From a virus: a DNA stretch of 64,000 bases. The DNA lies in IMG/VR virus record IMGVR_UViG_3300042520_000860, positions 1 through 64,000 of that record. One strand, written 5' to 3'. Positions 2,534 through 63,631 of this stretch are shown here, one piece after another (position 1 is the stretch's first letter; each line of letters opens with the position of its first letter). The notes beneath the pieces are model-generated. The model was given only the letters and a program-made list of their open reading frames with translations. It made no database searches and was not told where the DNA came from. The position numbers were made by a program, and so were the translations under genes.

Positions 2534-2738
2534 GGTCGTTATTTTCTATTTGTTTGGTTTGGTTTGGTTTATTGCCTATTTGCTGGCAACGAAATCAACC
2601 TACCTTATGCCCTTTCGTTTTGCAAACTTTTTCTCGTAAATCTTTAAAATCCTTGTGTTTATGCGCCCTCTAGCTCCTAAATAGTTGCAAACTATTTGCA
2701 AACTATTTGCAAAACGTGCAAATTTTCCTCATCTTTTC
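2534..2738 (-). repeat. promoter module repeat copy A (5' truncated)
   Basis: Near-identical to 14266-14503 and 63390-63631. Confidence 0.9.
2597..2625 (-). promoter_or_regulatory. sigma70-type early promoter TTGCAA-N17-TAGGTT
   Basis: 17-bp spacing, AT-rich upstream sequence, conserved in three copies. Confidence 0.7.
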
Positions 2739-2754
2739 CGGGAAATTTGCCCTT

Positions 2755-5493
2755 TCAATCTTTAGCCCATTGCGGGCGTACCGCCTTCACATCGGGACGC
2801 TCGTTTAATGCAGCAAGCGTATCACCTACCGAAACGTCAGACGCAATCGGCAAAGGCGGAGTGATGTCGAACAGATCCTCCAACGGATTGTTTTGCATGT
2901 ACCATTTCAAAGCTGACGCAGCTTCGTCGATTGAATCTTTGCGTGCTTCAATGACCACTGCGTCATGAATGAAAGCAACCGCGCGCATTCGGTCACGTGG
3001 GCAGTCTCGATCAAATCTTGCGAGCGCAAGTACTCCTAAGTCGGAAGCGAATCGTTGCACGGGTGAGTTGACCGCTTGGCGCTCAGTCTCTTGCTTGATC
3101 TTGTCCTCATTCGATTTGATCGATGGCAAGCGGCGCAATGCACCATGCAACGCTCGTACATAACCATGCTCGCGCACGAATGCTTTCATGGTCTTGTGCC
3201 AACTCTCCAACGAGGGGTAGAGAGTGAAGAACCGCGTGCGGATTGCCTCGGCTTGCTTTGGCGTGAAAGTGACACCGTAGTCAGTCTTGGCGTAGTCCAT
3301 GAACTTCGTCCACCACATGCCGTAGAGGAATCCGAAGTTGATTGCCTTGGCCTTTTGTCGGTCTTCCTTTTTCACGTCCTCAATCGGGATGTTCATCACG
3401 CCAGCCGCAGTCGCCGCATGAATGTCACCACCATCTTGGTAAATCTTCAGCATCTTTTTATCATTGGCCATCCACGCCGCAATCCGCAACTCAGCTTGTG
3501 ACAAGTCAGCTTCAATGAATACAAAGCCATCGGTAGGAATGAAGATCCGACGAAAGTCCTTGGCGGTTTGCCCCCGCTTAGGGAAGTTCTGCGCGTTGGG
3601 GTTTTGCGATGAGGTGCGGCCTGTCACGGTATTGTCCAAGCGGAACGACGGATGCACACGCCCGCCTTGCAAGTATTGCCAAAAGCCAGAGGCAGGCTTT
3701 TCTTTGGCCTTGAATACTTGGCCGTTCTCATCAACGCGCAGCGGCCCGACTTCAATCAAGGTGCCTTGCGGCTGAATCATTTCGTCAATCGGTTGCGTAT
3801 TCTCCGCGAGAAATACGCTGGCTTGATTGAGTAGCTTTTCAACCGCAAGCGGCAACCGCCCGCTTTTCAATCGCTTAACCACTTGATAATCAACGCCACC
3901 GCGCTCGCCGATGTAAGTACTGCGCATCTTTTGCAGCTTCTTGTACTCAATCAACTTCGCCACGAATGGAACATGGTCAAAGAACGGCAGGTGCTGCTTG
4001 CTACTGACCGATGGAATACGCTCCGACTTTTTACCGCCGGAGCTGCCCTTGGTAAAGACCACAGGCTCCAAACCAAACCCATCCTTTGAAAAGAGAAGAT
4101 CGGCCACAAATGAATCGCGCGAGAATGAAAGTCCCTTGTCTTCATGCCTTCGCATTACGGCGGGGGCTTTCTGAGCTGACAATTTCAAAAGCTCCTCATA
4201 CGACACTTTTTCTTTGACGGAGTAGTTTGCGCCCAAGTCTTCCAGCGCCGGAACATCAATGCCAATGCCAGTGGCTTCCATGTTGACGAATGCACGAAGG
4301 CCAGCCATTTGAATGTGCATGAAGGTATTCCACTGCCGATCATCCTTTCGACATTCTTTTGCCAGCGCAATCATCAAGCGAAAGCACGCATCGGTATCAC
4401 CACCCGCATAACGGATCATCTGGTCATGCGGCACCAAGTCCATACGACTTTTGCCTTGATGAACTTCTGCTGAATTGAACGCATCCGCATAGCCAGCCAT
4501 CTCAGGCACCCAGCGGCGCGTACATTCATCAAGACTCTTACGCTCCATGTTCTCATCCACTGCAAACGCCAACTGCATGGTATCAGCATACCAGTTAGAA
4601 ACTTTCACGCCGTGGTTGCGCAAATGATGCAAATCAAACTTGAGGTTGTGGCCAACCACGCGGCATTCGGAGTCACCAAGCAACTGGTTCAGTTGATTGA
4701 CAAGTTTTGCAAGGTTTGCAGAGGTGAGCTGTGGCAGGTGCTTTGATGAGTCACCGCGCAACGCCGGATTATTAAAGTAGCCCAAGGATAGCGGCACAAT
4801 CAACGCGTGGCCTTGCTTGTAAGAGAGTTGCAGAGTCAAGATGCGAGGCTCACCATGCGCCCATTCAAAGCCAAGAGTTTCGGTATCGAGCGTCAAGCAA
4901 TCGGGTTGATGGTCAATCAACGGTTGCAAGTCCAAGCACCATTCGTAATGCGCCTCGTCCGCCACACTTTCAAAGATGGTCGAATCCCATGCGGCATCTT
5001 TGAGCGAACCGATTTGCAAAAAGTCACCCTCAACGATTGGTAGAATCTCAGGACGGCGTAGCGCGTGCGCGGGCGATAGTAGTGGAAGTAGTTTGACGCC
5101 AGCGCGAGCGGCGCAATCAACAAGCGTGCCTCGCGCTTCGGTGATCTTAACCGAACGCCCTACCACTTGTCGCAGGGCGGTCTTGCCAAGCGTAACCACC
5201 AAGCGAAGATTCGGCATTGATTGAATGACTGTCAGCAACTCGTCGCGATAGTCAGCCAAAAACTCACCGACCTTGCGCTCACTATGTGCAATGTCTTCAG
5301 GAATTGGCGGGCATGGCGTAACCATGCGTATCTCGCTGCCTTTGATGCCGTTTGATTCAACCAAGCGGCGCATCAGCGTCATTTGCGCGCTGCTCATCAC
5401 TTGGTCAAGACCATAGTCCTTTGCGCTGGGCGCATCGGTCACGAATAAGATCACGGCGTCTTCATTGCCGAGTGCGTTTAATTTGTTTTCCAT
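2755..5493 (-). CDS. polA: family A DNA polymerase with N-terminal UDG-like domain and 3'-5' exonuclease
   Basis: Exonuclease motifs DTET, HNLKFD, YAGGD; motif A DLSQAELR, motif B KAINFGFLYG, motif C IHDA; N-terminal VVTLGKTA...ITEARG UDG-like segment. Confidence 0.92.
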   Translation of the reverse strand: MENKLNALGNEDAVILFVTDAPSAKDYGLDQVMSSAQMTLMRRLVESNGIKGSEIRMVTPCPPIPEDIAHSERKVGEFLADYRDELLTVIQSMPNLRLVVTLGKTALRQVVGRSVKITEARGTLVDCAARAGVKLLPLLSPAHALRRPEILPIVEGDFLQIGSLKDAAWDSTIFESVADEAHYEWCLDLQPLIDHQPDCLTLDTETLGFEWAHGEPRILTLQLSYKQGHALIVPLSLGYFNNPALRGDSSKHLPQLTSANLAKLVNQLNQLLGDSECRVVGHNLKFDLHHLRNHGVKVSNWYADTMQLAFAVDENMERKSLDECTRRWVPEMAGYADAFNSAEVHQGKSRMDLVPHDQMIRYAGGDTDACFRLMIALAKECRKDDRQWNTFMHIQMAGLRAFVNMEATGIGIDVPALEDLGANYSVKEKVSYEELLKLSAQKAPAVMRRHEDKGLSFSRDSFVADLLFSKDGFGLEPVVFTKGSSGGKKSERIPSVSSKQHLPFFDHVPFVAKLIEYKKLQKMRSTYIGERGGVDYQVVKRLKSGRLPLAVEKLLNQASVFLAENTQPIDEMIQPQGTLIEVGPLRVDENGQVFKAKEKPASGFWQYLQGGRVHPSFRLDNTVTGRTSSQNPNAQNFPKRGQTAKDFRRIFIPTDGFVFIEADLSQAELRIAAWMANDKKMLKIYQDGGDIHAATAAGVMNIPIEDVKKEDRQKAKAINFGFLYGMWWTKFMDYAKTDYGVTFTPKQAEAIRTRFFTLYPSLESWHKTMKAFVREHGYVRALHGALRRLPSIKSNEDKIKQETERQAVNSPVQRFASDLGVLALARFDRDCPRDRMRAVAFIHDAVVIEARKDSIDEAASALKWYMQNNPLEDLFDITPPLPIASDVSVGDTLAALNERPDVKAVRPQWAKD

Positions 5494-5506
5494 TGTTGAC
5501 TAGTAG

Positions 5507-7472: not shown

Positions 7473-8906
7473 TCATTCCCATTGCTCAAAGGTGCCATCA
7501 GTGGCGGTGGGTTGAGTTTGCCGTACCTTGCGCCACGTAGCATTTCGCTCGGCAGCGGCGGTATGGTCAGCCTTGGCATTTTCAAAGGCGGCCTGTTGGC
7601 GTTTGAGTTGATTAGCGGCGGCCTCAGCATCTTGCTTGGCCTTGAGCAATCCAAGGCGCTCGTCGACCTCACGCTCGGCGGTAGAGCGGTCAGTGCCTTT
7701 GCGAATGCGCATCTCAATTTCGCGATCGCGAGTAGATAGACCCGCCATGCGCTCAAGCGACTGTCGACCAGCCCATGCTTGCTCGAAGCGATCGGAAAAT
7801 TTCACAAGGAAACGAATAGACGGTACAGACGGAGAGCTGGCCTTCATCCATGCGAACTGAGCCTCGCGAATCGTATGCCAGCGCTCAATCAACCATGACA
7901 AGTAGTCAAGCCACTCGGTATTGGTTCTGGCTTTCGATGCCGCAACGAATCGCTTGCCATACTTGTGAAGGATTAAGCAATCGGTTTTTGTCACCGCCAA
8001 GTGATTGGCATCTGGATGAAGTGAAAGGCATAAGCCATGCCACGCTTTATTTACGGAATTAAAACGCCACGCGTTGATTTTGCCTTGGCGTTGATTTGCA
8101 GACTTGCGGCTAACGGAGTCCATCAACTGTGCAACAGCAAGCAAGCCCTCGCCCTGCGAAGCGGGGCCGCTGAGCGAAGCGCTCGGTGTAGTTTCTTCTT
8201 TTGCGTAGCATTTATCTTTTCTTTTCTTATGTAAACGTAAAGAAATTTTACAATCCTCTGTAAAATTATTTTCCATTTCTGGTTTTTTTGTAAAATTATT
8301 TTCCATTTCAGAGGATTCAACTTTTTGCACAGTTTGCAAATGTTGCAATCTTTTTGGCTTAGCTAGTGGCATATCTTGCAGAGTTTGAGTTTCATCGGGG
8401 TTCCATTCATAATTTAATGCGTAGGCTTTCCGCCGTGCATCTTTGCGCAAGCGAAGCGCACCGCGCGAAATCAAAGCGTTCAGGCACTTAGAAAGCGTTG
8501 GTCGGGTAATGACTAGGCCCGTAGAATAAATTTTGCCATCAGCGCCGACTACGCCATTGATGAAATGATCAGTCCGAATCACTTCCCATTCTTTTCCCCA
8601 GCCTGCGGTGCGATCAAATACGAACTGCGCAACAAGGAACTCATTCGGTGATAAGTGGGGACGCCAAACGCGAAACAGTATCTTGAACCATTCGCGGAAC
8701 TCAATCGGATTTTTCATTGACCCATCACCAAAAAAATTGATTGACGAGTCAGCGTCCGATGCTAAGTTGGCGGTGCGTTCATGGTCTGGGCGCGTTCTAT
8801 TTGTATTGTTCATTAGCTTGACCCGCCTCCCTTTAACAGGAGGCGGGTCTTCTTTTGCAACTCCAGACGGCAGACCAATGCCGATAGGAAATTCAGTCGA
8901 AGACAT
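7473..8906 (-). CDS. putative replication initiator (lambda O-like organisation)
   Basis: N-terminal winged-HTH-like region (ITRPTLSKCLNALISRG); internal AT-rich repeats; upstream of loader and helicase; start codon uncertain. Confidence 0.6.
   Translation of the reverse strand: MSSTEFPIGIGLPSGVAKEDPPPVKGRRVKLMNNTNRTRPDHERTANLASDADSSINFFGDGSMKNPIEFREWFKILFRVWRPHLSPNEFLVAQFVFDRTAGWGKEWEVIRTDHFINGVVGADGKIYSTGLVITRPTLSKCLNALISRGALRLRKDARRKAYALNYEWNPDETQTLQDMPLAKPKRLQHLQTVQKVESSEMENNFTKKPEMENNFTEDCKISLRLHKKRKDKCYAKEETTPSASLSGPASQGEGLLAVAQLMDSVSRKSANQRQGKINAWRFNSVNKAWHGLCLSLHPDANHLAVTKTDCLILHKYGKRFVAASKARTNTEWLDYLSWLIERWHTIREAQFAWMKASSPSVPSIRFLVKFSDRFEQAWAGRQSLERMAGLSTRDREIEMRIRKGTDRSTAEREVDERLGLLKAKQDAEAAANQLKRQQAAFENAKADHTAAAERNATWRKVRQTQPTATDGTFEQWE
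8200..8350. other. putative replication origin inside the initiator gene
   Basis: 21-bp direct repeat TGTAAAATTATTTTCCATTTC at 8259-8279 and 8289-8309; inverted half-copy at 8244-8252; AT-rich; triple TTGCAA-type array at 8325-8348. Confidence 0.55.
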
Positions 8907-9252
8907 AGAAGTCCTTTCCACCTTTGACAGCCGCTTGAATTAAATCGACCTCAGTCGCAACGGCGGAGTCATAGTCTTTGAAAAGTAATAAGCCGCCGCC
9001 GTCAACCGCCACATGGTCGCAACCTTGCGTTAGGAAAGCACATAAGAAGCGGTCAGCATAGCGGTTGCGCAATCGACCTTGCAGGAAACGAATCTTCCAT
9101 TGCTGAGCGTCTTCGCACCATTCAATGTCCGTGACTCGTTTGATTGACGCGTTACCAAAGTCCCTAAGGTCAAGGCCGTCAGTTTTGAATTGAAGACCCT
9201 TGATTGAACCATCGGTTTTGACGCTTATGACTTGCGTGGTGAGCTTTGTCAT
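8893..9252 (-). CDS. hypothetical protein of the AAA/DUF1257/DUF2997 module
   Basis: LDLRDFGNASIKRVTDIEW motif; gene context. Confidence 0.6.
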   Translation of the reverse strand: MTKLTTQVISVKTDGSIKGLQFKTDGLDLRDFGNASIKRVTDIEWCEDAQQWKIRFLQGRLRNRYADRFLCAFLTQGCDHVAVDGGGLLLFKDYDSAVATEVDLIQAAVKGGKDFYVFD

Positions 9253-9267
9253 TGTCTGGTGGGTAGG

Positions 9268-9459
9268 TTAGAGCGTGAGCTGGTTGCCGTCCTCAGATTC
9301 AGCTTGTAGGAACATCTCTGGCTTATCTACGCGAACGGTCTCAGCGCCGAGCGCATCTTCGATTGGCTTTGTGAATTTAAGACAGTCGCCACCACTGAAG
9401 CCGTGCGCTTCGATGACTGGCTTGCCGTCCTTGTCGATTGTTATGGTTATGGTTTTCAT
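9268..9459 (-). CDS. DUF2997 family protein
   Basis: ITITIDKDG...EAHGFSGGDC...TKPIEDALG signature. Confidence 0.8.
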   Translation of the reverse strand: MKTITITIDKDGKPVIEAHGFSGGDCLKFTKPIEDALGAETVRVDKPEMFLQAESEDGNQLTL

Positions 9460-9463
9460 GAAG

Positions 9464-9916
9464 TTAGATTGAGATTTCAAGATGAACATTGCCTTGGTCG
9501 TCAGTGGTCACGCCAAGCACGGAGTATCCGGCAAGCGTAGCGGCGTTGATCGTTGCATGTTTGGAGTAGGCTTGCATCAGTTTGCCAGCATCAGAGCCGA
9601 TCAATCCTTCAAGCACTTTGCCGTCATGCGTTCCGCCGCTGCCCCAGAAGTCGAATAACGGAAACAATCCATCCTCGCCTTTAATTTGCGCGAAGCCGAC
9701 CTCGTAGTTGACACCTTCGAACTTGGCCGCACACTCGCACTTGCCTAAGTCGTCAACCGTCATTCCGACAGGAAGCGGGTAGTCACCAACATGGCGACCG
9801 AACCACTTGTAGGTTTTTTGGTCTAGGTGAAGTACGCCGCCTAATTCAGCGACGGCGCTTTGAAGCGCGTTCAAGTCCTTGATCGGCACGTTCTTAATTG
9901 CAGTTACATGGCTCAT
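9464..9916 (-). CDS. DUF1257 (Ycf35-like) protein
   Basis: MSHVTAIK...IKDLNALQSAVAELG start; YEVGF; DFWG; QAYS. Confidence 0.75.
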   Translation of the reverse strand: MSHVTAIKNVPIKDLNALQSAVAELGGVLHLDQKTYKWFGRHVGDYPLPVGMTVDDLGKCECAAKFEGVNYEVGFAQIKGEDGLFPLFDFWGSGGTHDGKVLEGLIGSDAGKLMQAYSKHATINAATLAGYSVLGVTTDDQGNVHLEISI

Positions 9917-9945
9917 ACTTTTGTTTTGTTCTATTGGTTGTGGGG

Positions 9946-10581
9946 TTAGATTGGTTTGATGAAGCGGCGGCGTTTCTGAACGGTCACAAGCGCAGTTGAA
10001 CCGTCATCTTTTTGAATGGTCTCAATCTTAGCTTTCTCAGCGTCGATCATTCGCGTAGCGAAGAGGTACTCAACGGAGGACGGGTGAAACATTTTATCGA
10101 ATTGAAGAAGCGCCTTAATACCTAGTGACTTGGCTTCCTCCAAAGAAATCAGATCGAATCTACCAATCACCTTGGCAAATGGCGCAGTCACGTTTGGGTC
10201 TGAAAGCAATCGCACAGTAACTTCAGTCAGCGCAGCGGTATCGCGCACGCGAAGGAATTGACAGGCTGAGATAGTCATTTTTCCAGCACCAGCACGGCGT
10301 TGGCCGAATACTTTCAGTATCTCTCCGTTGGCGACCTCATACGTCATTCGAGTCATCTTACCACCGATTTCAGGCGAGTAGCCAGAGACGGATGGCGTAA
10401 CGGTTGGGAATGGTGAGATGCGGCGGACAACGTGCGCGGTCTGAGGTGACTTGGCAGCGATGCCCAAGTGCATCTCATTAACGCCAGTGTTTACGAACTG
10501 GCGGGGCGAATGGAAAACGAAAGCCTTGGCGCTTCCGTAGCGGAGGTTAATCTCTCCTGTGAGCGTTTCTATCGGGGTCAT
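9946..10581 (-). CDS. hypothetical protein
   Basis: 211 aa ORF; possible promoter TTGCAA-N17-TAGAAC at 10608-10636. Confidence 0.65.
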   Translation of the reverse strand: MTPIETLTGEINLRYGSAKAFVFHSPRQFVNTGVNEMHLGIAAKSPQTAHVVRRISPFPTVTPSVSGYSPEIGGKMTRMTYEVANGEILKVFGQRRAGAGKMTISACQFLRVRDTAALTEVTVRLLSDPNVTAPFAKVIGRFDLISLEEAKSLGIKALLQFDKMFHPSSVEYLFATRMIDAEKAKIETIQKDDGSTALVTVQKRRRFIKPI

Positions 10582-10654
10582 GGTTGGTCTGGGGTTGCAT
10601 TAGTAGTGTTCTATCAAATACTTATTTGCTTTGCAAACATAAAGTTTAGAAAGA

Positions 10655-10711
10655 GAGGGCGGCTGGCGACCATGTTCGGAAGAAACCAATACTTCCTAGC
10701 CAACCGCCCTC
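10655..10711 (-). terminator. long bulged hairpin (terminator or processing site)
   Basis: GAGGGCGGCTGGC/GCCAACCGCCCTC arms with inner GGAAG/CTTCC stem, just past the ATPase stop. Confidence 0.45.
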
Positions 10712-10718
10712 AAATCTT

Positions 10719-12362: not shown

Positions 12363-12372
12363 GGTCTTGGAT

Positions 12373-12401
12373 AAGTTAATAAATACGAATCGGCTTTGCA
12401 A
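12373..12401 (-). promoter_or_regulatory. promoter TTGCAA-N17-TAACTT
   Basis: Same -35 as the early promoters; perfect TTGCAA-N3-TTGCAA upstream at 12424-12438. Confidence 0.55.
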
Positions 12402-12440
12402 TCTTATTTTGTAGAAAATTGATTTGCAACGTTTGCAAAT

Positions 12441-13979: not shown

Positions 13980-14001
13980 GGTCTTGGTTGGTTTGGTTTG
14001 G

Positions 14002-49378: not shown

Positions 49379-49430
49379 AGGTGGGCAGAACTTAGCGTCT
49401 GAAGGAAATTTCGCAATCACTTTTTGCAAC

Positions 49431-52620: not shown

Positions 52621-52627
52621 GGCTTAT

Positions 52628-54486: not shown

Positions 54487-54509
54487 GTGATTAAGTATTT
54501 TGTCGGAGG

Positions 54510-55322
54510 CTATTTTCGAGGAATTTCAATAGCCTTGCCATTATTAAGAATAGGGCGTTGCTTGAACTGAGACCAGCTAGCCCTTCCGCTGGCTTTACCA
54601 AAGTGATTACACGCGACTAGACTTATGTCGTCTGGCCATAATTTTTTGAGATTACGTAGATGATTAAGTCTTCCAGTAGCGCCACCCCTTACATCCTGCA
54701 TACCACCCGCTATGGCATCCGAACTAGCTGAATGTTGAAGATATTGAAAACAAAGTAGCGTTACCCATCCTTGTTTAAGTACTTGAAGAGAATAGTCAGT
54801 GTCTCCGGGAATAACGCGCCACCATGCGTCAACATCTGTGCGAAATAGCCCACAGGTGTAAATCAGCTGGTTCACTAGGAATGGGCGCGGCTCATTAAAC
54901 ACCGCCCCTTGTGCTTTTGGACATGCCGCCGCTACGTTCTTAAACTGTGTAACAAACTCTTGAACGCCCAGTAAGGCATCGAGAGCCTCACACCGTTCGG
55001 CCTTAAATTTTCCATCAATGATTCCAACTCTTCGGCGAAATGAAATAAGATCGTCATCTATTTGCCAGTGCCACTTTGCCCCCATAGTACGGGCATGTCG
55101 CTTACAGAAATTACGAGAAAAGATAATCCCTTGATTATCCTTAGGCAATACGAGAATCCTATCTTCGCCATATTGGTTTGCGTAAGCCTCGCTTTCTTGC
55201 GGCTCCACCACTAAACGAAATGGGATATTGTTCCTCAGAAGTAGCTTGGGAGTAGTAGCGGAGTTTGCCCTTCCCTTTGAGGGCACATAGATAGGGAATA
55301 GATTCTCTAGTTTCGCGCTCAT
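54510..55322 (-). CDS. GT-A glycosyltransferase (GREB1-like type)
   Basis: PIYVPSKGRA, VVEPQE...Y, SRNF, WQIDDD, DTDYSLQVL. Confidence 0.75.
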   Translation of the reverse strand: MSAKLENLFPIYVPSKGRANSATTPKLLLRNNIPFRLVVEPQESEAYANQYGEDRILVLPKDNQGIIFSRNFCKRHARTMGAKWHWQIDDDLISFRRRVGIIDGKFKAERCEALDALLGVQEFVTQFKNVAAACPKAQGAVFNEPRPFLVNQLIYTCGLFRTDVDAWWRVIPGDTDYSLQVLKQGWVTLLCFQYLQHSASSDAIAGGMQDVRGGATGRLNHLRNLKKLWPDDISLVACNHFGKASGRASWSQFKQRPILNNGKAIEIPRK

Positions 55323-55334
55323 GATTATCGGCGA

Positions 55335-56279
55335 TTAGTGACTCTCCCGCAGCGAGGGAACGCTCAGCACTGCCTCCATTGCTTGTGCCCAGCCTGTGTG
55401 TGGGCTAGTCATCCATGGCTCTCTTATTGCAAGAATGTCACGGCGTATCTGCATGGCCACACTGCTAGTGTTCACCGATCCATATGGCGAGATACGAATC
55501 ATAAACGGCTGCTCGAAACGCCTCACCAGATCGCTATGATACTCTAGCGCAGTGCTCCACTCTGCCGCGTGAGGCTTCAGACCGGCAGGAGTAGGTGCTG
55601 ACCTAGATTGAATGATCTGTTTAGCCGTCAACTCTGGATCAATAAACGGCGACTGTATCTTTGTTAAGCACTCTACAAGAGCGTCTTCACTTGAAGTCAT
55701 TAGCTGGTCGAAGTCAAAGACCTCGCAGCCAATTTGAGTGAACGCCCAATCCATCCTCCACCTCATAAGCTGCCAACCCGCCACGGCCTGTCTCCGAAGG
55801 TCAGTAGCCGTTGAGCGTAGAAACTCCTTCAATTCACAATCAACCAACCCATGCGACAGGATTGAATGAAAGCAGGCCACGTACCAGCCGACTACCCTAA
55901 CAGTAAGGGGCGGAAAGGTGTAGGAGATGTTTCTAGTTACGCCAAACGTGTGGAAACGTTTTGAGAATGCCTCCGCACAGAATGAGAAAAATACTTCTTT
56001 GGTAAAGTTGTAGGGCTCCTTATTCCACGACGAATCCAAGATTTTATCCACCGTGTCCGAATCAAGTTCTTTCGGGATATTACCTACGCACGGGTAAAGC
56101 TCACAACCTAAGTATGGCGAAAGCGCCTCATAGTACTTTTGATTTAGTACAGGGTTAAAGAACTCTTTAGGGTACATCGAAATGGACGGATTTGCCTTAG
56201 CGATGCAGTTTGAAAACCAAGTTGAGCCGGAGTTTGGCTGACTCACGAGCAGTAAATTACACTCAGTTTTCGTTTTCAT
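55335..56279 (-). CDS. sulfotransferase-like P-loop protein
   Basis: LLVSQPNSGSTWF 5'-PSB-like loop, KEFFNP, FTKEV. Confidence 0.55.
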   Translation of the reverse strand: MKTKTECNLLLVSQPNSGSTWFSNCIAKANPSISMYPKEFFNPVLNQKYYEALSPYLGCELYPCVGNIPKELDSDTVDKILDSSWNKEPYNFTKEVFFSFCAEAFSKRFHTFGVTRNISYTFPPLTVRVVGWYVACFHSILSHGLVDCELKEFLRSTATDLRRQAVAGWQLMRWRMDWAFTQIGCEVFDFDQLMTSSEDALVECLTKIQSPFIDPELTAKQIIQSRSAPTPAGLKPHAAEWSTALEYHSDLVRRFEQPFMIRISPYGSVNTSSVAMQIRRDILAIREPWMTSPHTGWAQAMEAVLSVPSLRESH

Positions 56280-56410
56280 GGTTTTGACTTGGTGAAGTTT
56301 TCGATCAGCGCAAACGAGCGCGTGCCACTTGGAATGTTCCAAGCGTAAGCGGACGGGTCAAACAAGTAGCGGTTGCCCTTGGTAAATGCTGGTTTGAGTT
56401 CTGGGGTCAC
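56276..56410 (-). CDS. 44 aa hypothetical protein (GTG start)
   Basis: Open frame ending in an ATGA overlap with the sulfotransferase start. Confidence 0.3.
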   Translation of the reverse strand: MTPELKPAFTKGNRYLFDPSAYAWNIPSGTRSFALIENFTKSKP

Positions 56411-56636
56411 AGCGGGTGAGTCACCAGACAATCTTAATCCTCAAATGCTGTCAAGCTATTGGTGTGCAACTTGTGCGAAATAGTTTGTGACAAATCGCAC
56501 AGCTTTTCTGTCACAAAAGAAATTGCAACGTTTGCAATTTTGAAAAGTTGTTACTGGCAAGGACTCCTACGAGTAACAAACCTTTCGCCAACTCATTTGA
56601 CTGGACGCGGTTATCCTATGGCTTATCATGCGCCCG

Positions 56637-56936
56637 ATGCTCAAGAGCGTTTCCATCGCTGGCCACAAGATACCGATACGCGTGAAGAATCTTGAGGATT
56701 GCTACGGGCAGTATTCTCCCGATGCGAAGGTGATCGAACTCGACAGGAAGACGCTCAAGGATAGTAAGCTCCTTCGCGAAACTCTGCGGCATGAGATGGT
56801 CGAAGCCGCATTGTATCTCAGCGGCGTTGCCTACAGCGAAAACTACGAGCAAGAGCCAATCGTCCGTGCACTCGATGAGTTATTCTGGCCAGCTTGGGAC
56901 TCGGCCAGCAAACGGCTGGACAAGCTCACGCAATGA
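56637..56936 (+). CDS. ImmA/IrrE-like zincin-fold protein (HExxE variant)
   Basis: YGQY...IEL...ETLRHEMVEA...EQE; the only credible + strand gene. Confidence 0.65.
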   Translation: MLKSVSIAGHKIPIRVKNLEDCYGQYSPDAKVIELDRKTLKDSKLLRETLRHEMVEAALYLSGVAYSENYEQEPIVRALDELFWPAWDSASKRLDKLTQ

Positions 56937-56959
56937 TTTGCAAGGTTTGCAAACTAATT

Positions 56960-57244
56960 TCAGCAGACTGGCCATGCTCGTAGCTCGTCATAAGTGAAGT
57001 CGTCATTGTCGTGGTCCGCCGACTCAAAGGGATTGTCGTCGTTCGGCCACGTGGGCTTATTCCAGCTCAGGCCGTTCTTTGCCAGTTGCCGCAATTCCTC
57101 TACCGTAGAGTTTTCCGCCGCCGCAATTCTCGACAAGGCCCTTTCCATCATGAATAGCTTTCCGCGCAGCGCGGATTCACGCTCGCCGCTCATTGCCAGC
57201 AGCCGCGCTTGCTCAAGGCATTCGTCGCATTGGCGCTTACTCAT
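56960..57244 (-). CDS. hypothetical protein
   Basis: EQARLLAMSGERE motif shared with 59611..59841. Confidence 0.55.
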   Translation of the reverse strand: MSKRQCDECLEQARLLAMSGERESALRGKLFMMERALSRIAAAENSTVEELRQLAKNGLSWNKPTWPNDDNPFESADHDNDDFTYDELRAWPVC

Positions 57245-57434
57245 CAACGTTCTTTCCGCAGTCAGGGCAGTAATCCCCCATTGGCTCAACCCGTGAGAAG
57301 AATGGATCTTTGTCGCTGCCGCAATGCGGGCACTTAAACGACTTGGCCTCCTTGCGGAAGATGTCGTCGTGGTTGTTCCGAAATACTTCGCCGTTTACGG
57401 GGCGCGGCGCATGGCCTTTTCCTGCTTGGTTCAT
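57237..57434 (-). CDS. small Zn-ribbon protein
   Basis: AGKGHAPRPV; CPHC and CPDC. Confidence 0.6.
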   Translation of the reverse strand: MNQAGKGHAPRPVNGEVFRNNHDDIFRKEAKSFKCPHCGSDKDPFFSRVEPMGDYCPDCGKNVDE

Positions 57435-58735: not shown

Positions 58736-59085
58736 TGATGTTCTCCTTTCACGGCGGCGAGTGCTTTCTCGATTAACTCGTATGCTGCACCTGTTAGTGA
58801 ATAATTATGCCAAAGATCATTGAGCACCTCCGCCAGCCTGTCGCGTTGCTCGATAGCTTCCTCGTAATCTTCTATAGCAGAAAACAGAGCTTTCTGTGCT
58901 GTGTCGCGTTGCCCTTTGGTCTCAAAATAACGGTCTTCATATTTAGATGCTATCACCCTCGCCTCCTCGCGTTGCTTGCGCGCTTCATAAAGTTCGCTTT
59001 CCAATTGGACGATCCATCTCGACTCAAAACTATCATAGCCAAAGGCGGTTATGTCTGGTGTGTCGGTTTCTTGTTGGTCACTCAT
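58732..59085 (-). CDS. coiled-coil hypothetical protein
   Basis: TDTP...EQRDRLAE...ALAAVKG. Confidence 0.6.
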   Translation of the reverse strand: MSDQQETDTPDITAFGYDSFESRWIVQLESELYEARKQREEARVIASKYEDRYFETKGQRDTAQKALFSAIEDYEEAIEQRDRLAEVLNDLWHNYSLTGAAYELIEKALAAVKGEHQ

Positions 59086-59390
59086 TGCTGGTTTCTTTCT
59101 ACTGCAATCGCGAGGGCTTCAAGAGTGTCTGGGTCGATCTCGCCGCCTAGGTTGTAATCAGTCAGTGCGCTATCGACTAGCTTGGTAAGCTCATCCTTTG
59201 TCGCATTTGCAAACATTGCAAATTGGAGTGCGTCGTCTCTGTCGCGTTCCATGCGTCGGATGACTCCTAGGGCGCAAGTCACTTGCTCTTCAAGCAAACC
59301 GATCTGTTCCTTCGCCCAAACCAACTCAGCCCGAAGGTTTGGTGAGTCCTCTGGCGGACTCCACCCTGTTCCGTACTCGTCGCTTATCAT
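59082..59390 (-). CDS. coiled-coil hypothetical protein
   Basis: ATGA overlaps at both ends. Confidence 0.6.
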   Translation of the reverse strand: MISDEYGTGWSPPEDSPNLRAELVWAKEQIGLLEEQVTCALGVIRRMERDRDDALQFAMFANATKDELTKLVDSALTDYNLGGEIDPDTLEALAIAVERNQQ

Positions 59391-60409: not shown

Positions 60410-61291
60410 TTAGAGGTCTTCTGGGTGGCGAAAGCCAAGAAACGACGGGATGCGCGGCTTGTCCTTCATACCGATTGACTGATAGCGAAACTTGACGAGC
60501 TTTCCAAGATAGTTTTTGCGGTTGTCCCATATCTCTTTCCTCAGCGCGGCATCAAAGCCAGTGCCTAGGTTGAAGTCGCCGAAGCGTTCATGGCGAAGTA
60601 CTAACGCGCCAAGGGTTCCAAGCGGCGTGAGGTTTTCTTTGTGCGACGAGCGGCGCGTATGACCAAGCTCATTGGTGGTGGCCTCGTTATCATTGCGATG
60701 CTGTTCCTCGAAGTCGATGATCTCGGCCTCGTCGTCCTCGAAAGGTTTGAGTTTAATGAGGTGGCCTTCCTTGAAGGTTGACCTACCGAACTTGTAGACT
60801 CCTCGCGGGGCGCGGATCATTGCGCCCTCGTATCCACGCGTCAAGCATGAGTCCAGATAGTCGTCCAGCTCGATGCGGTCGCGAATGAACTTGGTTTCAA
60901 CCGCCTTCAGGAACGGGTGCTTTTTTGCAAGGTTTGCAATCCTGAAAATGTACTGATTGACCCGTTGCTCATACGGTAGCGCGGGACTGGTGAAGGTATC
61001 AAAGACATGGAAGGCGAAGTCGGGCTTGCCGCCGCGCGTCATAATCCCAGATGTGACATCTTGGAATGATGCGCCATCGCCCACCATCAACTCGCCATCA
61101 AAGCCATCGAACTCAGGCCGTGTCAGCGTCGCGCTGATGTGGCTGTTTGGAATGGGTTTGAGCGAGCGCGTCTTTGGCATGCCGTTAATCACAAGGCAAC
61201 GGATTCCGTCCAGCTTCGGTGAGGCAATCAGCGGAAAGCGCAGCGTGTGCGCCTCAGCATCAAAGGATGCCGCGAGCATGGGCTTAATCAT
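60410..61291 (-). CDS. lig: ATP-dependent DNA ligase
   Basis: KPMLA, SPKLDGIR, FDGEL, FHVFD, YEGAMIR, IKLK, GTGF, PRIP. Confidence 0.92.
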   Translation of the reverse strand: MIKPMLAASFDAEAHTLRFPLIASPKLDGIRCLVINGMPKTRSLKPIPNSHISATLTRPEFDGFDGELMVGDGASFQDVTSGIMTRGGKPDFAFHVFDTFTSPALPYEQRVNQYIFRIANLAKKHPFLKAVETKFIRDRIELDDYLDSCLTRGYEGAMIRAPRGVYKFGRSTFKEGHLIKLKPFEDDEAEIIDFEEQHRNDNEATTNELGHTRRSSHKENLTPLGTLGALVLRHERFGDFNLGTGFDAALRKEIWDNRKNYLGKLVKFRYQSIGMKDKPRIPSFLGFRHPEDL

Positions 61292-61854
61292 TGCGCACCT
61301 CCTTTCTGCTTGAGCGACAAGCGACCAAGCCCAGCGGTGAACCATTTAGGCGGGGAGCAAAACTTCCACTTAGCGAAACTACTTTTATCGTAGATGTAGT
61401 ACAGGCGATACTTTTCAACTGCCGTAAGGCCATCAAACCCTTGATGCTTGCGGCATTGCTGCTGGTCTGAGATGGCGATAGCAAAGTCGGTCAGCCCACC
61501 AAGAGGAACGAGCGAGTCATTGTAGCGCAAGTCGCACCATCGAATAAATTTCTCAGAAAAGTGAGACCCGCCATAGCGGCGCTTTTTTTCATGGCACATA
61601 GACAGCGCGTGAAGGATCAGCCAATCCATGTTTTCAGAAGAGGCCATAACCCACCGCGTGCAAGGGTGGTTTGAGTACCCATGCGAGCGTGGGTTGCCGT
61701 TACTATTGCGGGGACAATCATTCGCGGCAAGGCGTTCCAAGGTAAAGCAGTTAGCCAGCATTTGAGCAGACTCAACAATCATCTTGATGACATGGGCATC
61801 ACATAAGTCCCTCGCCGCTTTTTCTGGATCTTGATCTAAGCAGAATATGTTCAT
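61288..61854 (-). CDS. pyrimidine dimer DNA glycosylase/endonuclease V family protein
   Basis: MNIFCLD..P..AA...CDAHVIKMIVESAQML, NHPCTRW, YRLYY. Confidence 0.8.
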   Translation of the reverse strand: MNIFCLDQDPEKAARDLCDAHVIKMIVESAQMLANCFTLERLAANDCPRNSNGNPRSHGYSNHPCTRWVMASSENMDWLILHALSMCHEKKRRYGGSHFSEKFIRWCDLRYNDSLVPLGGLTDFAIAISDQQQCRKHQGFDGLTAVEKYRLYYIYDKSSFAKWKFCSPPKWFTAGLGRLSLKQKGGAQ

Positions 61855-62022: not shown

Positions 62023-62090
62023 AGCGTTAATTTATTTGGTTGGCGAGTTGGTAGTTTAAGAGGCGCGGGGATTGAACCCACGCCGGAAGT

Positions 62091-62960
62091 TTAGGCATCA
62101 GCGGATTCGTTATTGAACTGCACGCCCATTATGAAGTCAGCGGCGCGTTGTGCTTGCGCGGCGGCTTGCACCACCAGCTTAGAATCATCCTTGAGCGCTT
62201 TGAGCCATGAGGCAATGTACGAGGCACTTGTTTTCAAAGTGTTTTCAATGCCCGCTGAGGCGCTCAAGAAGGCCGCGCCCATCTCGGCGACTAACTCTTC
62301 CTTGGCGTAGCACTCATCACCGAAGGCCGCCAGCTCCGTAACGCCAGCGCGGTTTAAGCGCGACTCATGACCCGTGGCGTGGGTTAGCTCATGGAAAAGG
62401 ACTGAGTAGTAATTGCCCTCGGCATCGAATGACTCACGCGGCGGCATCGTCACGCTATCCTCGCAGGGGCGATAAAAAGCACGCCCACCTCCATGATTGA
62501 TGCGGGGGGCCTTTGGCATCTCGGCCACGATCTTTTCCGCCGCCTCAATCGGGTTGAACTCTGGCAGGTTGGCGGGTGCTTCATCGACCGCAAGACCGTC
62601 GCATTGCTCGACATTGAAGACGGTGAAGTATCTCAGGAAAGGAACTTTCTTCGGCGTGCCATCGGCTTTCTTTTCGGTCTTGGAGTCAACCCAGTTCCAG
62701 AAGACAATCGGCGTTCCCTTTTCGCCCTTGCGCACTGAGCCGCCAAGGGAAGTAGCTTGCTTGAAGGTCAGCCAGTAGGGCGAGGCATACGGGGCGAATC
62801 CAAGGAGGAACCAGTTGACGCCGCGATAAGGCTTGCGGCTGATAAAGTTAGCAGGGTTTCCGCCGTTCTCGGCTTTCCACGGCTTGCGCCATGGCACTGT
62901 TCCAGCTTCGAGTTGCGAAATGATTTGCTCGGTGACGATTTCGTAGATGTCTTTTTTCAT
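62091..62960 (-). CDS. ardC: ArdC-like antirestriction ssDNA-binding protein with metallopeptidase domain
   Basis: PWRKPW, YRGVN, WLTFKQA, VRKGEKG, VFNVEQ, FHELTHATGH, YAKEELVAE. Confidence 0.9.
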   Translation of the reverse strand: MKKDIYEIVTEQIISQLEAGTVPWRKPWKAENGGNPANFISRKPYRGVNWFLLGFAPYASPYWLTFKQATSLGGSVRKGEKGTPIVFWNWVDSKTEKKADGTPKKVPFLRYFTVFNVEQCDGLAVDEAPANLPEFNPIEAAEKIVAEMPKAPRINHGGGRAFYRPCEDSVTMPPRESFDAEGNYYSVLFHELTHATGHESRLNRAGVTELAAFGDECYAKEELVAEMGAAFLSASAGIENTLKTSASYIASWLKALKDDSKLVVQAAAQAQRAADFIMGVQFNNESADA

Positions 62961-63029
62961 GGTCGTATTTGGTTTTGGTTTTGGTTTTGGTTGGTTAGGG
63001 TTAGCCGGGGATGGAACCCGGCGGGTTGG

Positions 63030-63389
63030 TTAGATGCGCTTGAAGTGGATCGGGTCGCTGTACTGATCACCGGCTAGGAGGACTTTGAAAGTTTCGCCTT
63101 CGATGATGACGAGTTGTTTGTTGTCGAGAATTACTGAGTCCCTGATTTCTTGGCGCTCTTTTTCAAGCTCTTCGGCTTTTCCTGCGTAGTCAGCGGTAAG
63201 CATGGCTGGCTTTTGATTAGCCCAAGCAGTGTCGTGGCCACGCATTAGGCAATGCTCGTGAGCCTCTTCTGGGTCTGAATTGCATTCGTGGGCATATCCA
63301 CGAGCCGTTCGGACTCTAATCTTTTTGGCGTATTGGCTGAAGCCGAAGCCGCGAACGACTTGGTTGTGGTGGAGTTGGATTGGATTCAT
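63030..63389 (-). CDS. hypothetical protein, first gene after promoter repeat C
   Basis: AACC leader ending GACCATG; GDQYSDPIHF C-terminus. Confidence 0.65.
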   Translation of the reverse strand: MNPIQLHHNQVVRGFGFSQYAKKIRVRTARGYAHECNSDPEEAHEHCLMRGHDTAWANQKPAMLTADYAGKAEELEKERQEIRDSVILDNKQLVIIEGETFKVLLAGDQYSDPIHFKRI

Positions 63390-63631
63390 GGTCGTATTTG
63401 GTTTGGTTTGGTTTATTGCCTATTTGCTGGCAACGAAATCAACCTACCTTATGCCCTTTCGTTTTGCAAACTTTTTCTCGTAAATCTTTAAAATCCTTGT
63501 GTTTATGCGCCCTCTAGCTCCTTAAAAATTGCAAATTAGTTGCAAAACGTGCAAATTTTCCTCATCTTTTTGCCCTCTTTTCCTTTGTGTGTATTTTTTG
63601 AATACACTTTTGGTAAGGGCTCTTCCTCTTC
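63390..63631 (-). repeat. promoter module repeat copy C (promoter at 63441-63469)
   Basis: Near-identical to copy B along its full length. Confidence 0.9.

Follow-up and report, generated by a model that had tools for sequence, protein, structure and literature searches.

What purpose is served by a 15-base palindrome, TTGCAA-N3-TTGCAA, that recurs about once per 2.5 kb across both the genes and the gaps of an uncultured 78-kb tailed phage? The stretch of DNA analysed here (the window) comprises the first 64,000 positions of the whole phage record, which is 78,298 bp long (G000). All 14 perfect copies that an initial annotation had reported in the window were found at the same positions, and G000 contains 17; the one-mismatch copies, initially put at about 12, number 13 in the window and 15 in G000. 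In 100 dinucleotide shuffles, perfect copies occurred 0.02 times on average and once at most. The half-site TTGCAA was the most over-represented hexamer, with 79 occurrences in the window and 93 in the genome, compared with about 19 expected. When half-site spacings from 0 to 20 bases were compared in the window, 14 pairs were found at N3, four at N5, one each at N16 and N19 and none at any remaining distance, making N3 the sole enriched spacing. The fuller motif in G000 reads tTTGCAA-GGT-TTGCAAat, and the extended dyad consensus is tTTGCAA-N3-TTGCAAa. Perfect and one-mismatch copies of the palindrome together number 32 in G000; its core, TTGCA-N5-TGCAA, is present 28 times (8 copies intergenic and 16 deep in ORFs).

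The initial annotation had proposed that the palindrome is selected at the DNA level, and this holds on two counts. Perfect copies inside genes number 12, whereas 300 synonymous-codon shuffles yielded 0.46 on average and never more than 3. In addition, comparison with relatives at 74-84% DNA identity showed the site cores to be kept at 256 of 260 positions, versus 80% in the flanks. The copies inside genes are translated in differing reading frames (LQNLQ, xANLAx and CKPCK), and the spacer of the perfect copies is biased to NGT, both as first described. These results demonstrate that the palindrome is selected as DNA. Its placement also agreed with the first description: copies are stacked at 8325-8348, lie in the repeated early modules and upstream of the AAA and capsid genes, and flank the only + strand gene on both sides (Table 1).

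Table 1. Palindrome copies and associated features, in G000 coordinates (identical to those of the window up to position 64,000)
Feature	Position	Strand	Remarks
Promoter-like TTGCAA-N17-TAGGTT	2597-2625		early module 1
Triple half-site	2695-2721	-	early module 1 (2558-2766); sense strand TTGCAC-GTT-TTGCAA-ATAGT-TTGCAA
One-mismatch copy	3667-3681	.	within DNA polymerase gene
Further one-/two-mismatch copies	4707, 6617, 16416, 40491, 42361, 52230
Lambda-O-like replication initiator gene	7473-8921	-	universal core gene of the family; rival candidate binder
Perfect copy TTGCAAATGTTGCAA	8334-8348	.	inside O-like initiator gene; overlaps one-mismatch copy 8325-8339
Perfect copy	12424-12438	.	intergenic; 22 nt upstream of AAA ATPase gene 10719-12401 (-)
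Promoter-like element	14314-14342		early module 2
Triple half-site, same as 2695-2721	14401-14427	-	early module 2 (14275-14483)
Hairpin	14462-14480		early module 2
Perfect copy TTGCAAGGCTTGCAA	17219-17233	.
Perfect copy	23281-23295	.	deep within 805-aa gene 22208-24625
Perfect copy	30500-30514	.	within tape-measure gene 27618-31403
Perfect copy	34131-34145	.	within gene 33714-34268; identical copy at the orthologous position of G001
Two overlapping one-mismatch copies	35797-35820	.	end 2 nt upstream of ATG of gene 34916-35794
Capsid-gene promoter	TTGACA 38484-38489, TTAAAT 38461-38466	-
Perfect copy	38498-38512	.	8 nt upstream of capsid-gene promoter -35 box
Perfect copy	42952-42966	.	within head protease gene 42263-43390; kept in G001
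Perfect copy	46616-46630	.	close to 5' end of MuF-like gene 43728-46712; kept in G001, L005, L007, L010
Perfect copy, reversed spacer (ACC on +)	48696-48710	.	gene 48079-48846; site and orientation kept in relatives
Promoter-like TTGCGA-N16-TAAGTT	TTGCGA 49411-49416, TAAGTT 49389-49394		7 nt downstream of copy 49424-49438
One-mismatch copy	49424-49438	.	overlaps TerL stop codon; kept in G001
Perfect copy	56523-56537	.	divergent intergenic region, upstream of only + strand gene
Perfect copy	56938-56952	.	between convergent ends of + strand SprT-like gene 56628-56936 and gene 56960-57289
Perfect copy	59207-59221	.	gene 59082-59390; identical in G001
Perfect copy	60925-60939	.	within ATP-dependent DNA ligase gene 60410-61345
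Triple half-site, same as 2695-2721	63528-63554	-	early module 3 (63402-63610)
336-aa early protein gene	67126-68136		outside window, downstream of fourth early module
Fourth early module	near 69310-69520		outside window

Each of the 10 larger relatives (TerL 45-62% identical) carries a 14-18-bp dyad of its own in 8-45 copies. These dyads include tTTGAAAA-S-TTTTCAAa (45 copies in G006), TTGACCG-T-CGGTCAA (24 in G007), TGCAAC-W-GTTGCA (30-34 in G009 and G010), TGCAAC-NN-GTTGCA (35 in G008) and TTTGCACGATCTTGCAAA (14 in G002). The outer TTG...CAA is conserved across the phage family; variation affects the inner bases of the half-sites and their spacing (N3 or N4). The dispersed palindrome is thus a family trait, with a version that co-evolves in every relative. 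Across the family, the lattice of sites has a density of about one per 2-3.5 kb and consists of single sites, and no clusters were seen in the lattices of the relatives. The spacing is significantly even, with a coefficient of variation of the gaps of 0.40-0.74 versus about 0.95 for random placement. In the relatives, sites are enriched between genes, yet they also lie deep within ORFs; G006 has 28 of its 45 sites between genes, though non-coding DNA makes up only about 10%, and in several genomes the sites are distributed independently of gene boundaries.

The sites are also polar. In G007, 22 of 24 copies have T at the centre and none has A, and on the + strand G is the centre base of 11 of the 17 perfect copies of G000 (10 of 14 in the window); in G009, all 12 copies with a variant half-site have it upstream. 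The inverted repeats depart from symmetry only at the centre bases or through a weaker half-site on one side. The conserved genes all lie on one strand in every genome and site polarity is uniform along each genome. The sites are therefore oriented with transcription, which is inseparable from polarity relative to packaging or replication. A symmetric dimer is by itself insufficient to explain strict centre-base strand polarity. Such polarity would be expected if the arms positioned a nickase or a modification enzyme that introduces strand-specific nicks or base modifications into virion DNA (compare T5, phiKMV and tf), and single, even sites that disregard gene boundaries in several genomes would also fit, as would the ATP-dependent ligase and the DNA-glycosylation cluster with TAGT encoded by G000. 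However, we consider this explanation distinctly unlikely: none of the core genes was recognised as a nickase, the family-wide conservation of the lattice does not extend to the glycosylation cluster, the ligase or the ParB-like gene, several genomes have no centre-base bias (C 26 and G 17 in G006), and nicking would not predict the strong enrichment at promoters and start codons in G006, G012 and G013.

Inverted repeats could instead act as RNA or single-stranded DNA hairpins that process or stabilise RNA, signal to the lagging-strand primase or primosome, or serve as N4-type hairpin promoters. Stems of 6-8 bp with 3-nt loops are possible, the polarity agrees with transcription from a single strand, Okazaki fragments are close in size to the spacing of about 2.6 kb, the core genes include a DnaG-type primase, and many G006 sites lie 2-25 nt upstream of start codons. 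However, such hairpins are predicted to have little stability (-3 to -7 kcal/mol). Furthermore, half-site variants are single and almost never compensated, and one-sided variants that break the stem occur in G012, G013 and G009, where an asymmetric class of 12 copies has a fold energy of 0 kcal/mol. It is the arm sequence that is conserved and not the arm pairing, which argues for a protein site rather than a hairpin. N4-type promoters depend on the hairpin structure (a stem of 5-7 bp and a 3-nt loop) and on a virion RNA polymerase; no gene of that size and no giant RNA-polymerase-like ORF was recognised in G000, whose largest ORFs are the tape measure and unannotated structural-region ORFs. 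We therefore regard functional hairpins as very unlikely. The symmetric dyads, the half-site variants that go uncompensated and the versions that co-evolve in relatives collectively match the behaviour of dispersed sites for a dimeric protein, as initially suggested.

Which protein binds them? The promoters of the early modules use TTGCAA as their -35 box (TTGCAA-N17-TAGATT), and in G000, G006, G007, G012 and G013 some sites immediately precede sigma70-like promoters. A subset stands 4-10 bp ahead of a -35 box or directly in front of a start codon, and the rest are distant from promoters. All the half-sites (TTGCAA, TTGACC, TTGAAA and TTGAAC) resemble -35 boxes, and the outer TTG...CAA is the part that is conserved; a host protein such as sigma-factor region 4 or a regulator of -35-like TTGNNN could thus bind them, with the phage exploiting or titrating this factor. 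Against a host factor, which had been named as a possible binder, no -10 or other promoter element was found at a fixed distance from the G000 sites, and relatives without a particular 336-aa phage protein have no lattice. In addition, where related phages differ in the inner bases of the half-sites and in spacing, a phage protein changes along with them, so that we give a host binder very little probability.

Two of the candidates proposed within the window fared worse, and it is extremely improbable that either is the binder. The N-domain of the ParB-like protein 53545-54486 matches phrog_620 (E 3.9e-31) and ParB proteins bind 16-bp palindromes, but its gene belongs to a glycosyltransferase/TAGT cluster of the kind usual at DNA-modification loci. 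The ORF 14514-14915, taken initially for an HTH protein, has no Pfam or PHROG match. All 10 related genomes carry a lattice, yet none encodes a homologue of either protein.

The third initial candidate, the lambda-O-like initiator, deserves more weight. It is universal in the phage family, and a protein of this type should be a sequence-specific dimer. In PHROGs it has a weak match to O-like initiators (phrog_678, E 4.5e-4); in the ESM Atlas, the clusters closest to it are Phage_rep_O and HTH_36 (0.95). Its gene contains the only stacked copies in G000, as the lambda ori lies inside gene O; the two copies overlap and thus form three half-sites at a 9-bp period. If it bound the sites, they could be dispersed origin-like, initiator-titrating or helicase-loading sites along the genome. 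In 8 of 10 genomes a site lies within the initiator gene, versus 3.3 expected, with an uncorrected P of 0.003 that fails correction for the approximately 24 genes tested. However, outside G000 the gene has at most one site in each genome, and known O-type initiators bind clustered iterons rather than 30-45 single sites. The initiator profile was unmatched at E <= 0.001 in four genomes that bear lattices, namely G015 (108 kb, judged complete), G016, G018 and G019, although this protein evolves fast (14-39% identity), so a match may have been missed in G015 and G016. Binding by the initiator thus stands as an unlikely reading, and it is less likely than binding by the 336-aa protein, which is encoded outside the window.

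This 336-aa protein is one of only five proteins common to all 10 full genomes. Its model consists of an SH3/KOW-like barrel (residues 1-80), a disordered basic linker rich in Lys, Ala and Pro (residues 80-121) and a helical C-domain (pLDDT 89.9). In a fold search with the C-domain, only 9 of 48,161 chains reached Z >= 5: four ParB-family DNA-binding domains, four Raf1 alpha-domains and one 48-residue thioesterase segment. The ParB-family matches were ParB-parS 6s6h_B (Z 8.3, rmsd 7.0, 129 aligned), Spo0J 1vz0_A (Z 7.9, rmsd 3.5, 107 aligned), KorB-operator 1r71_A (Z 6.7, rmsd 3.4, 110/114 aligned) and KorB 8qa8_A (Z 5.5); for a helical domain, Z of 6-8 is moderate, and the Raf1 alpha-domains score as high. 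The protein has no Pfam match to ParB, ParBc, KorB or HTH families and nothing significant by Foldseek. It is predicted to form a homodimer with a score of 0.70 versus 0.00 for the best control; in calibration, 20 of 30 proteins with structures solved as pairs attained this mark, as did 1 of 23 with structures solved as single chains. Contact agreement between runs was at least 56% and the partner pLDDT at least 69, with the interface within the C-domain. KorB, too, has an SH3-like domain, which it uses to dimerise.

The protein and the lattice occur together beyond the family as well. A homologue accompanies a TGCA-type lattice in G015 (28 sites), G016 (49) and G017 (29) and in the MAG contigs L189 and L191, and G020 and G021 have neither; at about half of the more distant homologue loci, no clear lattice was found within 10-20 kb. 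Furthermore, the putative recognition helix varies with the motif: YRKA(M/K/R)YLI pairs with TGCA half-sites, ADYYV with TTGCAC (in G012 and G002), and the remaining deviant helices with TTGAAC, TTGACC and TTGAAA. This link comprises about 19 pairs that are kin to one another, with G018 as one clear exception.

The closest published parallels are the KorB-OB system and the 17-bp repeats of Cluster O mycobacteriophages. KorB of the IncP plasmid RK2 (PMC11790492; PDB 1r71) recognises a short perfect palindrome that, as here, is present in many dispersed single copies on a mobile genome of 60-100 kb, some just ahead of -35 boxes, at 4-10 bp ('OB proximal'), and others distant from promoters. Each relative likewise carries 8-49 copies of a dispersed palindrome of the kind bound by KorB and ParB (13-16 bp), and the likeness may extend to the candidate binder, whose modelled C-domain resembles the KorB DNA-binding fold and which is predicted to form a homodimer. 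In contrast, OB sites number about a dozen, versus 30-45 evenly spaced, strand-polar sites here, and the present genome is that of a tailed phage with direct terminal repeats and not of a plasmid. The 336-aa protein lacks an N-terminal CTPase domain of the ParB/Srx type, having the barrel and linker in its place, so a sliding-clamp mechanism is not to be assumed, and no KorA- or ParA-like partner was seen among the approximately 60 ORFs scanned.

Cluster O phages (Corndog and relatives; PMC4351075) carry the dyad TGTTCGG-N3-CCGAACA, the same 7-3-7 inverted repeat, in > 30 copies genome-wide, about one-third of them in coding regions and most off promoters. G000 likewise combines a 7-3-7 dyad with > 30 copies that lie both between and inside genes and mostly away from promoters. 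These phages are not obviously temperate, and the authors predicted a dimeric DNA-binding protein and described the function of the repeat as unknown (PMC4351075). Since sequence and lineage are unrelated to those of G000, this is a likeness of kind and not homology. Unlike the sites here, Cluster O sites are not oriented in any meaningful way and occur more densely at one end of the genome, and that report describes no binder, even spacing or family-wide co-variation (PMC4351075). The analogies first drawn to stoperators and to ParB-type organisers proved apt. Cluster A stoperators (PMC9283540, PMC6550527) also occur in dozens of copies genome-wide, co-oriented with transcription, and their specificity co-evolves with a phage DNA-binding protein across relatives. 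They are, however, asymmetric 13-14-bp sites for the monomeric immunity repressor of temperate phages, whereas the present sites are dyad-symmetric, and the ORFs scanned included no recognisable integrase or repressor. Several relatives have direct terminal repeats. The 22-bp repeats of the lytic siphoviruses T1 and Citrobacter phage Stevie (PMC4319613; 16-20 copies, role unknown) share the orientation with transcription but are asymmetric and predominantly intergenic.

We propose, with as much confidence for as against, that the sites are docking sites for a phage-encoded homodimer, most likely the 336-aa ParB/KorB-fold protein, with a putative genome-wide role. The palindromes would provide high-affinity docking on double-stranded DNA, probably through a ParB/KorB-type helix-turn-helix in the C-domain. 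Because the two TGCA cores are 9-10 bp apart, they would face the same side of the helix, one core per subunit, and since the sites are single, even and co-oriented with transcription, the protein would be anchored along the whole chromosome. Sites that adjoin promoters would take the position of the 'OB-proximal' operators of KorB. We infer that binding may control or insulate transcription units throughout the genome and/or that the protein may coat and organise the phage DNA through its basic linker.

All 14 perfect copies of the 15-bp palindrome TTGCAA-N3-TTGCAA that the initial annotation had claimed for the window were recovered, position for position, compared to a mean of 0.02 copies (maximum 1) in 100 dinucleotide-preserving shuffles. 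The window is the first 64 kb of a 78,298-bp IMG/VR virus record (G000), which in full contains 17 perfect and 15 one-mismatch copies, 13 of the latter within the window; TTGCAA is the most over-represented hexamer, and the looser core TTGCA-N5-TGCAA occurs 28 times in G000. When TTGCAA pairs were counted at spacings of 0-20, N3 was the only enriched spacing (14 pairs in the window), followed by N5 with 4 and by 0 or 1 at all others. The extended + strand consensus in G000 is tTTGCAA-GGT-TTGCAAat, and the proposed spacer bias was also found (NGT on the + strand, with G as the middle base in 11 of 17 copies). When synonymous codons were permuted inside each gene, leaving protein sequences and per-gene codon usage unchanged, 300 trials gave a mean of 0.46 and a maximum of 3 in-gene copies, compared to the 12 perfect ones observed. 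Furthermore, in seven partial relatives (74-84% nucleotide identity to G000), orthologous sites are retained, their ten core bases TTGCA/TGCAA being identical at 256 of 260 positions, compared to 347 of 432 in the flanks, and the 3-bp spacer varied freely. The codon-shuffle excess and the core conservation therefore uphold the central claim of the annotation, a DNA-level signal that the encoded proteins do not explain.

The sites could in principle act as hairpins, in structured RNA or in single-stranded DNA. This reading was rejected in view of the variants within each genome, which are single and uncompensated at outer or inner half-site positions, and of the weak predicted RNA hairpins (-3 to -7 kcal/mol). 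Apart from A or C being allowed at position 6, compensated double changes are almost absent. The core (TGCA or TGA) is invariant within each genome, and an asymmetric class of 12 copies in relative G009 gives no fold. The two TGCA cores of a site lie 9-10 bp apart, about one helical turn, and this spacing and the variant pattern are characteristic of a dimer that recognises a specific sequence in duplex DNA. We consider it quite probable that the sites form a binding array for a phage-encoded protein.

G000 (CheckV completeness 89%) encodes tape measure, major head, portal, head protease, TerL and TerS proteins, a family A DNA polymerase, a DnaB-like helicase, a DnaG-like primase, a RecA-like protein and an SF2 helicase, together with a Cas4-like exonuclease, a Holliday-junction resolvase, an ATP-dependent ligase and an anti-restriction protein. 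The - strand carries almost all of the genes. A search for tRNA genes found none, and no integrase or repressor was recognised in a non-exhaustive scan of ~60 ORFs. Megablast of 12 kb of G000 against INPHARED gave no match, and tblastn with TerL found no close cultured relative (best identity ≤32%). IMG/VR contains many relatives. Ten of larger size were compared (28-97 kb; TerL identity to G000 or among themselves 45-62%), five of which were judged complete, with direct terminal repeats; in each of the ten, all conserved genes are placed on a single strand. A Shine-Dalgarno sequence was detected near any candidate start in only 11 of 77 G000 genes and the leaders are A/C-rich, which suggests a host with SD-independent translation initiation.

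De novo dyad counting showed that every relative examined has a dispersed inverted repeat of its own. Across the family the outer TTG...CAA is constant. Differences fall on the inner bases of the half-sites and on the distance between hexamers (N3 or N4), the two arms always changing jointly. Two distant TerL relatives (93-95 kb) had no such repeat, their top dyad (2 copies) being at the shuffled level.

Dispersed palindromes in relatives of G000 and at more distant loci encoding homologues of the 336-aa protein
Genome or locus	Motif	Copies	Remarks
G001	TTGCAA-N3-TTGCAA	9 perfect	in 28 kb
G011	TTGCAA-ACC-GTGCAA	28
G012	TTGCAC-N3-GTGCAA	21
G009	TTGCAAC-W-GTTGCAA	34
G010	CTGCAAC-W-GTTGCAG	29
G008	TGCAAC-NN-GTTGCA	35
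G002	TTTGCACGATCTTGCAAA	14	all perfect
G006	tTTGAAAA-S-TTTTCAAa	45
G007	TTGACCG-T-CGGTCAA	24
G013	TTGAACG-N-CGTTCAA	10
G015	TGCAGA-YR-TCTGCA	28	108 kb, judged complete; gap coefficient of variation 0.43; homologue present
G016	TGCAAACGTTTGCA	49	102 kb; homologue present
G017		29	homologue present
L131, L132, L141, L142, L144	TGCA-core lattices		homologue loci

Overlaps shifted by 9 bp in G000 and G001 aside, no two copies lie <150 bp apart in any genome. The copies are more even than chance, their gaps having a coefficient of variation of 0.40-0.74, compared to ~0.95 for random placement (P ≤0.003 in 8 of 11 genomes); the 29 sites of G010, for example, are separated by 1,224-4,978 bp. Polarity is a further property of the arrays. 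In G007, 22 of 24 copies have T as the centre base and none has A, the variant half of a second class in G009 (TTGAAAC-T-GTTGCAA) is upstream in 12 of 12 copies, and variant halves in G012 and G013 are nearly all on one side. Because all genes are on one strand, an orientation with respect to transcription is inseparable here from one with respect to packaging, entry or rolling-circle replication. Unlike these polar arrays, the sites of G002 occur in both orientations (9 forward, 4 reverse complement, 1 other); their centre is almost invariant, asymmetric and contains GATC (TTTGCA-CGATCT-TGCAAA; 14 sites, L017-L020).

Family-wide, sites are over-represented between genes, yet they are also present within them. 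In G006, 28 of 45 sites are intergenic, although non-coding DNA makes up only ~10% of the genome, and many of the sites either precede an ATG by 2-25 nt or immediately precede one of the repeated sigma70-like promoter modules. Sites in G013, G012, G007 and G002 are mostly intergenic or at gene starts, and the majority of those in G000, G008, G009 and G010 are deep within ORFs. A reading of the sites as promoters or terminators was rejected, as no conserved -10/-35 or T-run was found within 45 nt of the G000 sites; a strict sigma70 scan placed a promoter just downstream of a minority of sites only, and the sites in general have no accompanying element at a constant distance. The claim that early promoter modules carry the motif was borne out by four near-identical ~210-bp modules, each with a triple half-site, a hairpin (GTGTATTCAAAAAATACAC) and a promoter-like TTGCAA-N17-TAG(A/G)TT, and each heading an early-gene block. 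Placement among core genes is non-random: certain core genes nearly always contain a site, the replication initiator gene holding one in 8 of 10 genomes (3.3 expected), and the capsid, portal and RecA-like genes hold one in none of the genomes compared.

Features of G000 (window coordinates, except where the record is named)
Feature	Position	Description
Early modules	2558-2766; 14275-14483; 63402-63610; record ~69310-69520	~210 bp each
Initiator	7473-8921	lambda-O-like, 482 aa
AAA ATPase and small conserved upstream genes	8893-12401	560 aa, PF00004; adjoin replication genes; kept in 9 of 10 relatives
A/C-rich leader repeats	13975-14003; 63385-63413 (examples)	AACCAAACCAAACC on sense strand
HTH ORF	14514-14915	earlier binder candidate
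Tandem run	33179-33238	12-bp unit GTTAGTTAAAAG; between two small structural-region genes
Capsid promoter	38461-38489	TTGACA-N17-TTAAAT; site ends 7-8 nt upstream
MuF-like head protein	43728-46712	994 aa; middle part weakly matches ADP-ribosyltransferase families (phrog_802, phrog_3895); possibly a virion-delivered effector
Promoter	49389-49416	TTGCGA-N16-TAAGTT; site ends 7-8 nt upstream
Cluster adjoining terS/terL	51493-56342	phrog_9677 (375 aa), glycosyltransferase (phrog_842), ParB-like N-domain protein, TET-associated glycosyltransferase (PF20691, E 3.5e-31), 335-aa unknown; resembles a DNA-modification locus; not conserved across family
ParB-like protein	53545-54486	earlier binder candidate
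Only clear + strand gene	56628-56936	102 aa; sub-threshold SprT-like metalloprotease match (PF10263, E 8.7e-5); perfect motif copies on both sides, arrangement kept in G001
ATP-dependent DNA ligase	60410-61345	early region; phrog_114, E 1e-68
Anti-restriction protein	62091-62960	early region; phrog_7245, E 6e-86
336-aa protein	record 67126-68136	candidate binder

Since the motif is universal in the family yet changes between members, its binder is expected to be a phage protein that is universal and evolves fast. The ten full genomes have just five proteins in common: DNA polymerase, TerL, the RecA-like protein, the 482-aa initiator and a 336-aa protein encoded outside the window. Two of the in-window binders proposed in the initial annotation do not fit this pattern among these genomes; the HTH ORF and the ParB-like protein both occur only in G000, the latter within the glycosyltransferase/TAGT cluster. 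The alignment of the 336-aa protein, which has no Pfam match, divides it into a short N-terminal domain, an extended linker rich in Lys, Ala, Pro and Glu, and a C-domain marked by the signature F..YVE..LG.KYRKA.YLI.IY....GITE......IGW(S/T)K.KEL. AlphaFold2 predicted an SH3/KOW/Tudor-like barrel for the N-domain and a disordered linker, and the C-domain modelled alone (28 sequences) reached pLDDT 89.9. Exhaustive structural comparison of this model with 48,161 chains left nine at Z ≥ 5: the ParB DNA-binding domain on parS (6s6h_B; Z 8.3, rmsd 7.0, 129 aligned), Spo0J (1vz0_A; Z 7.9, rmsd 3.5, 107 aligned), the KorB DNA-binding domain on its operator (1r71_A; Z 6.7, rmsd 3.4, 110/114 aligned), KorB (8qa8_A; Z 5.5), four Raf1 alpha-domains and one 48-residue thioesterase segment. 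A ParB/KorB-like fold is thus probable rather than certain, because, for a helical domain, Z values of this size are moderate and a Foldseek search with the 336-aa protein gave no significant match. The nearest named ESM Atlas clusters of the C-domain, DUF1016/ParB-HTH and DUF3102 (score 0.87), are at most a lead. A profile search of the PDB with the 336-aa protein gave weak matches to RecA C-domains only, which we did not trust. In addition, a complex predictor scored the 336-aa homodimer at 0.70, compared to 0.00 for the best control, with the interface in the C-domain, at least 56% contact agreement between runs and partner pLDDT of at least 69; of proteins solved as pairs, 20 of 30 attained this mark, and of those solved as single chains, 1 of 23. 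These models support a predicted homodimer formed via the C-domain.

Distant C-domain homologues in IMG/VR (24-44% identity) again lie within TGCA-core lattices, and bacterial MAG contigs (Acidobacteriaceae L189, Proteobacteria L191) carry further homologues amid evenly spread TGCAAT-NN-ATTGCA sites. Both the protein and the lattice are absent from the control genomes G020 and G021, and a clear lattice is absent at about half of the weakest or most distant homologue loci (10-20 kb examined). On an Azospirillum sp. RU38E contig (L190, ~9.2-15.4 kb of the locus), a C-domain homologue is found beside clustered GC-rich palindromes (GGCCGGCGGTCGCCGGCC), with no dispersed lattice. In a small, phylogenetically related sample, the putative recognition helix pairs with the half-site, YRKA(M/K/R)YLI with TGCA(A/G), ADYYV with TTGCAC in both G012 and G002, AAYYV with TTGAAC, AHSLV with TTGACC and AQHYI with TTGAAA, the one exception being G018. 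A simpler one-residue rule (LG or LN before the helix for TTGC or TTGA) fails for G013 and G009.

The initiator is a serious rival as the protein that binds the sites, because O proteins are dimeric and sequence-specific and its own gene is enriched for sites. It is as universal as the 336-aa protein, matches phrog_678 weakly, and has Phage_rep_O and HTH_36 as its nearest ESM Atlas clusters (0.95). However, no initiator-profile match was obtained in four of the more distant homologue genomes (G015, G016, G018 and G019), where a very divergent initiator could have escaped, and the homologues in distant lattices and on MAG contigs and the helix that tracks the half-site favour the 336-aa protein. 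Pairwise identity matrices of the two candidates against TerL and DNA polymerase did not discriminate between them. On this comparative evidence, binding of the sites by the 336-aa protein as a docked, KorB-like homodimer appears to us an even proposition.

Dispersed dyad repeats were previously known from a small number of cultured phages (Cluster O, T1-like), with neither a binder nor a function assigned. Cluster O mycobacteriophages carry more than 30 copies of 17-bp 7-3-7 dyad repeats, a third of them in ORFs; their function is unknown and a dimeric binder was predicted (PMC4351075). T1 and Stevie carry oriented 22-bp repeats (PMC4319613). Cluster A stoperators, in temperate phages, are asymmetric and bound by a monomeric repressor (PMC9283540, PMC6550527). 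KorB on RK2 has OB-proximal operators 4-10 bp upstream of -35 and distal ones 45 bp to >1 kb away (PMC11790492). The suggested analogy with stoperators does not extend to class membership because the sites here are symmetric, and the system is not canonical ParB/KorB because the candidate binder has no CTPase domain. In its proposed working the G000 system would be closest to KorB-OB, and in appearance it is closest to the Cluster O repeats. A limited literature search found no account of the 336-aa protein family, nor of even spacing as a trait of such arrays.

We propose that the sites are docking points for a homodimer of the 336-aa protein, with one dimer anchored about every 2.5 kb genome-wide. 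The protein would be produced early, because its gene is fourth or fifth behind the early module at ~69.4 kb. The consequences of occupancy can be suggested by analogy. A copy that precedes a -35 box by 4-10 bp would act on that promoter directly, as for KorB, and promoter-distant copies would be polar barriers or insulators for the single transcription direction. Alternatively or in addition, the distant copies may nucleate a coating of adjacent DNA by the histone-like basic linker; sliding is not assumed, since there is no CTPase domain. More tentatively, and in our view rather doubtfully, the system may represent a widespread and so far undescribed class of phage chromosome marking, in which a clamp-less ParB/KorB-fold protein, modelled as an SH3-like barrel, a histone-like basic linker and an HTH dimer, would coat, insulate or direct the whole genome from even, polar palindromes every 2-3 kb, site and protein co-evolving into lineage-private codes. 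Possible roles of such marking are setting transcription units, shielding from host nucleases and guiding unidirectional entry or packaging.

In this uncultured family of 70-110-kb siphovirus-like phages, the lattice principle is conserved while its sequence drifts, the copies are more even than chance and of one polarity, and the lattices travel with one conserved protein of probable ParB/KorB-like fold. The outcome is a concrete, testable candidate protein-site pair with natural specificity variants included, and phage contigs from metagenomes can be classified with the private words as strong markers. Should the 336-aa protein prove to organise or silence the genome with no CTPase clamp, it would widen the known repertoire of ParB-like DNA-binding modules.
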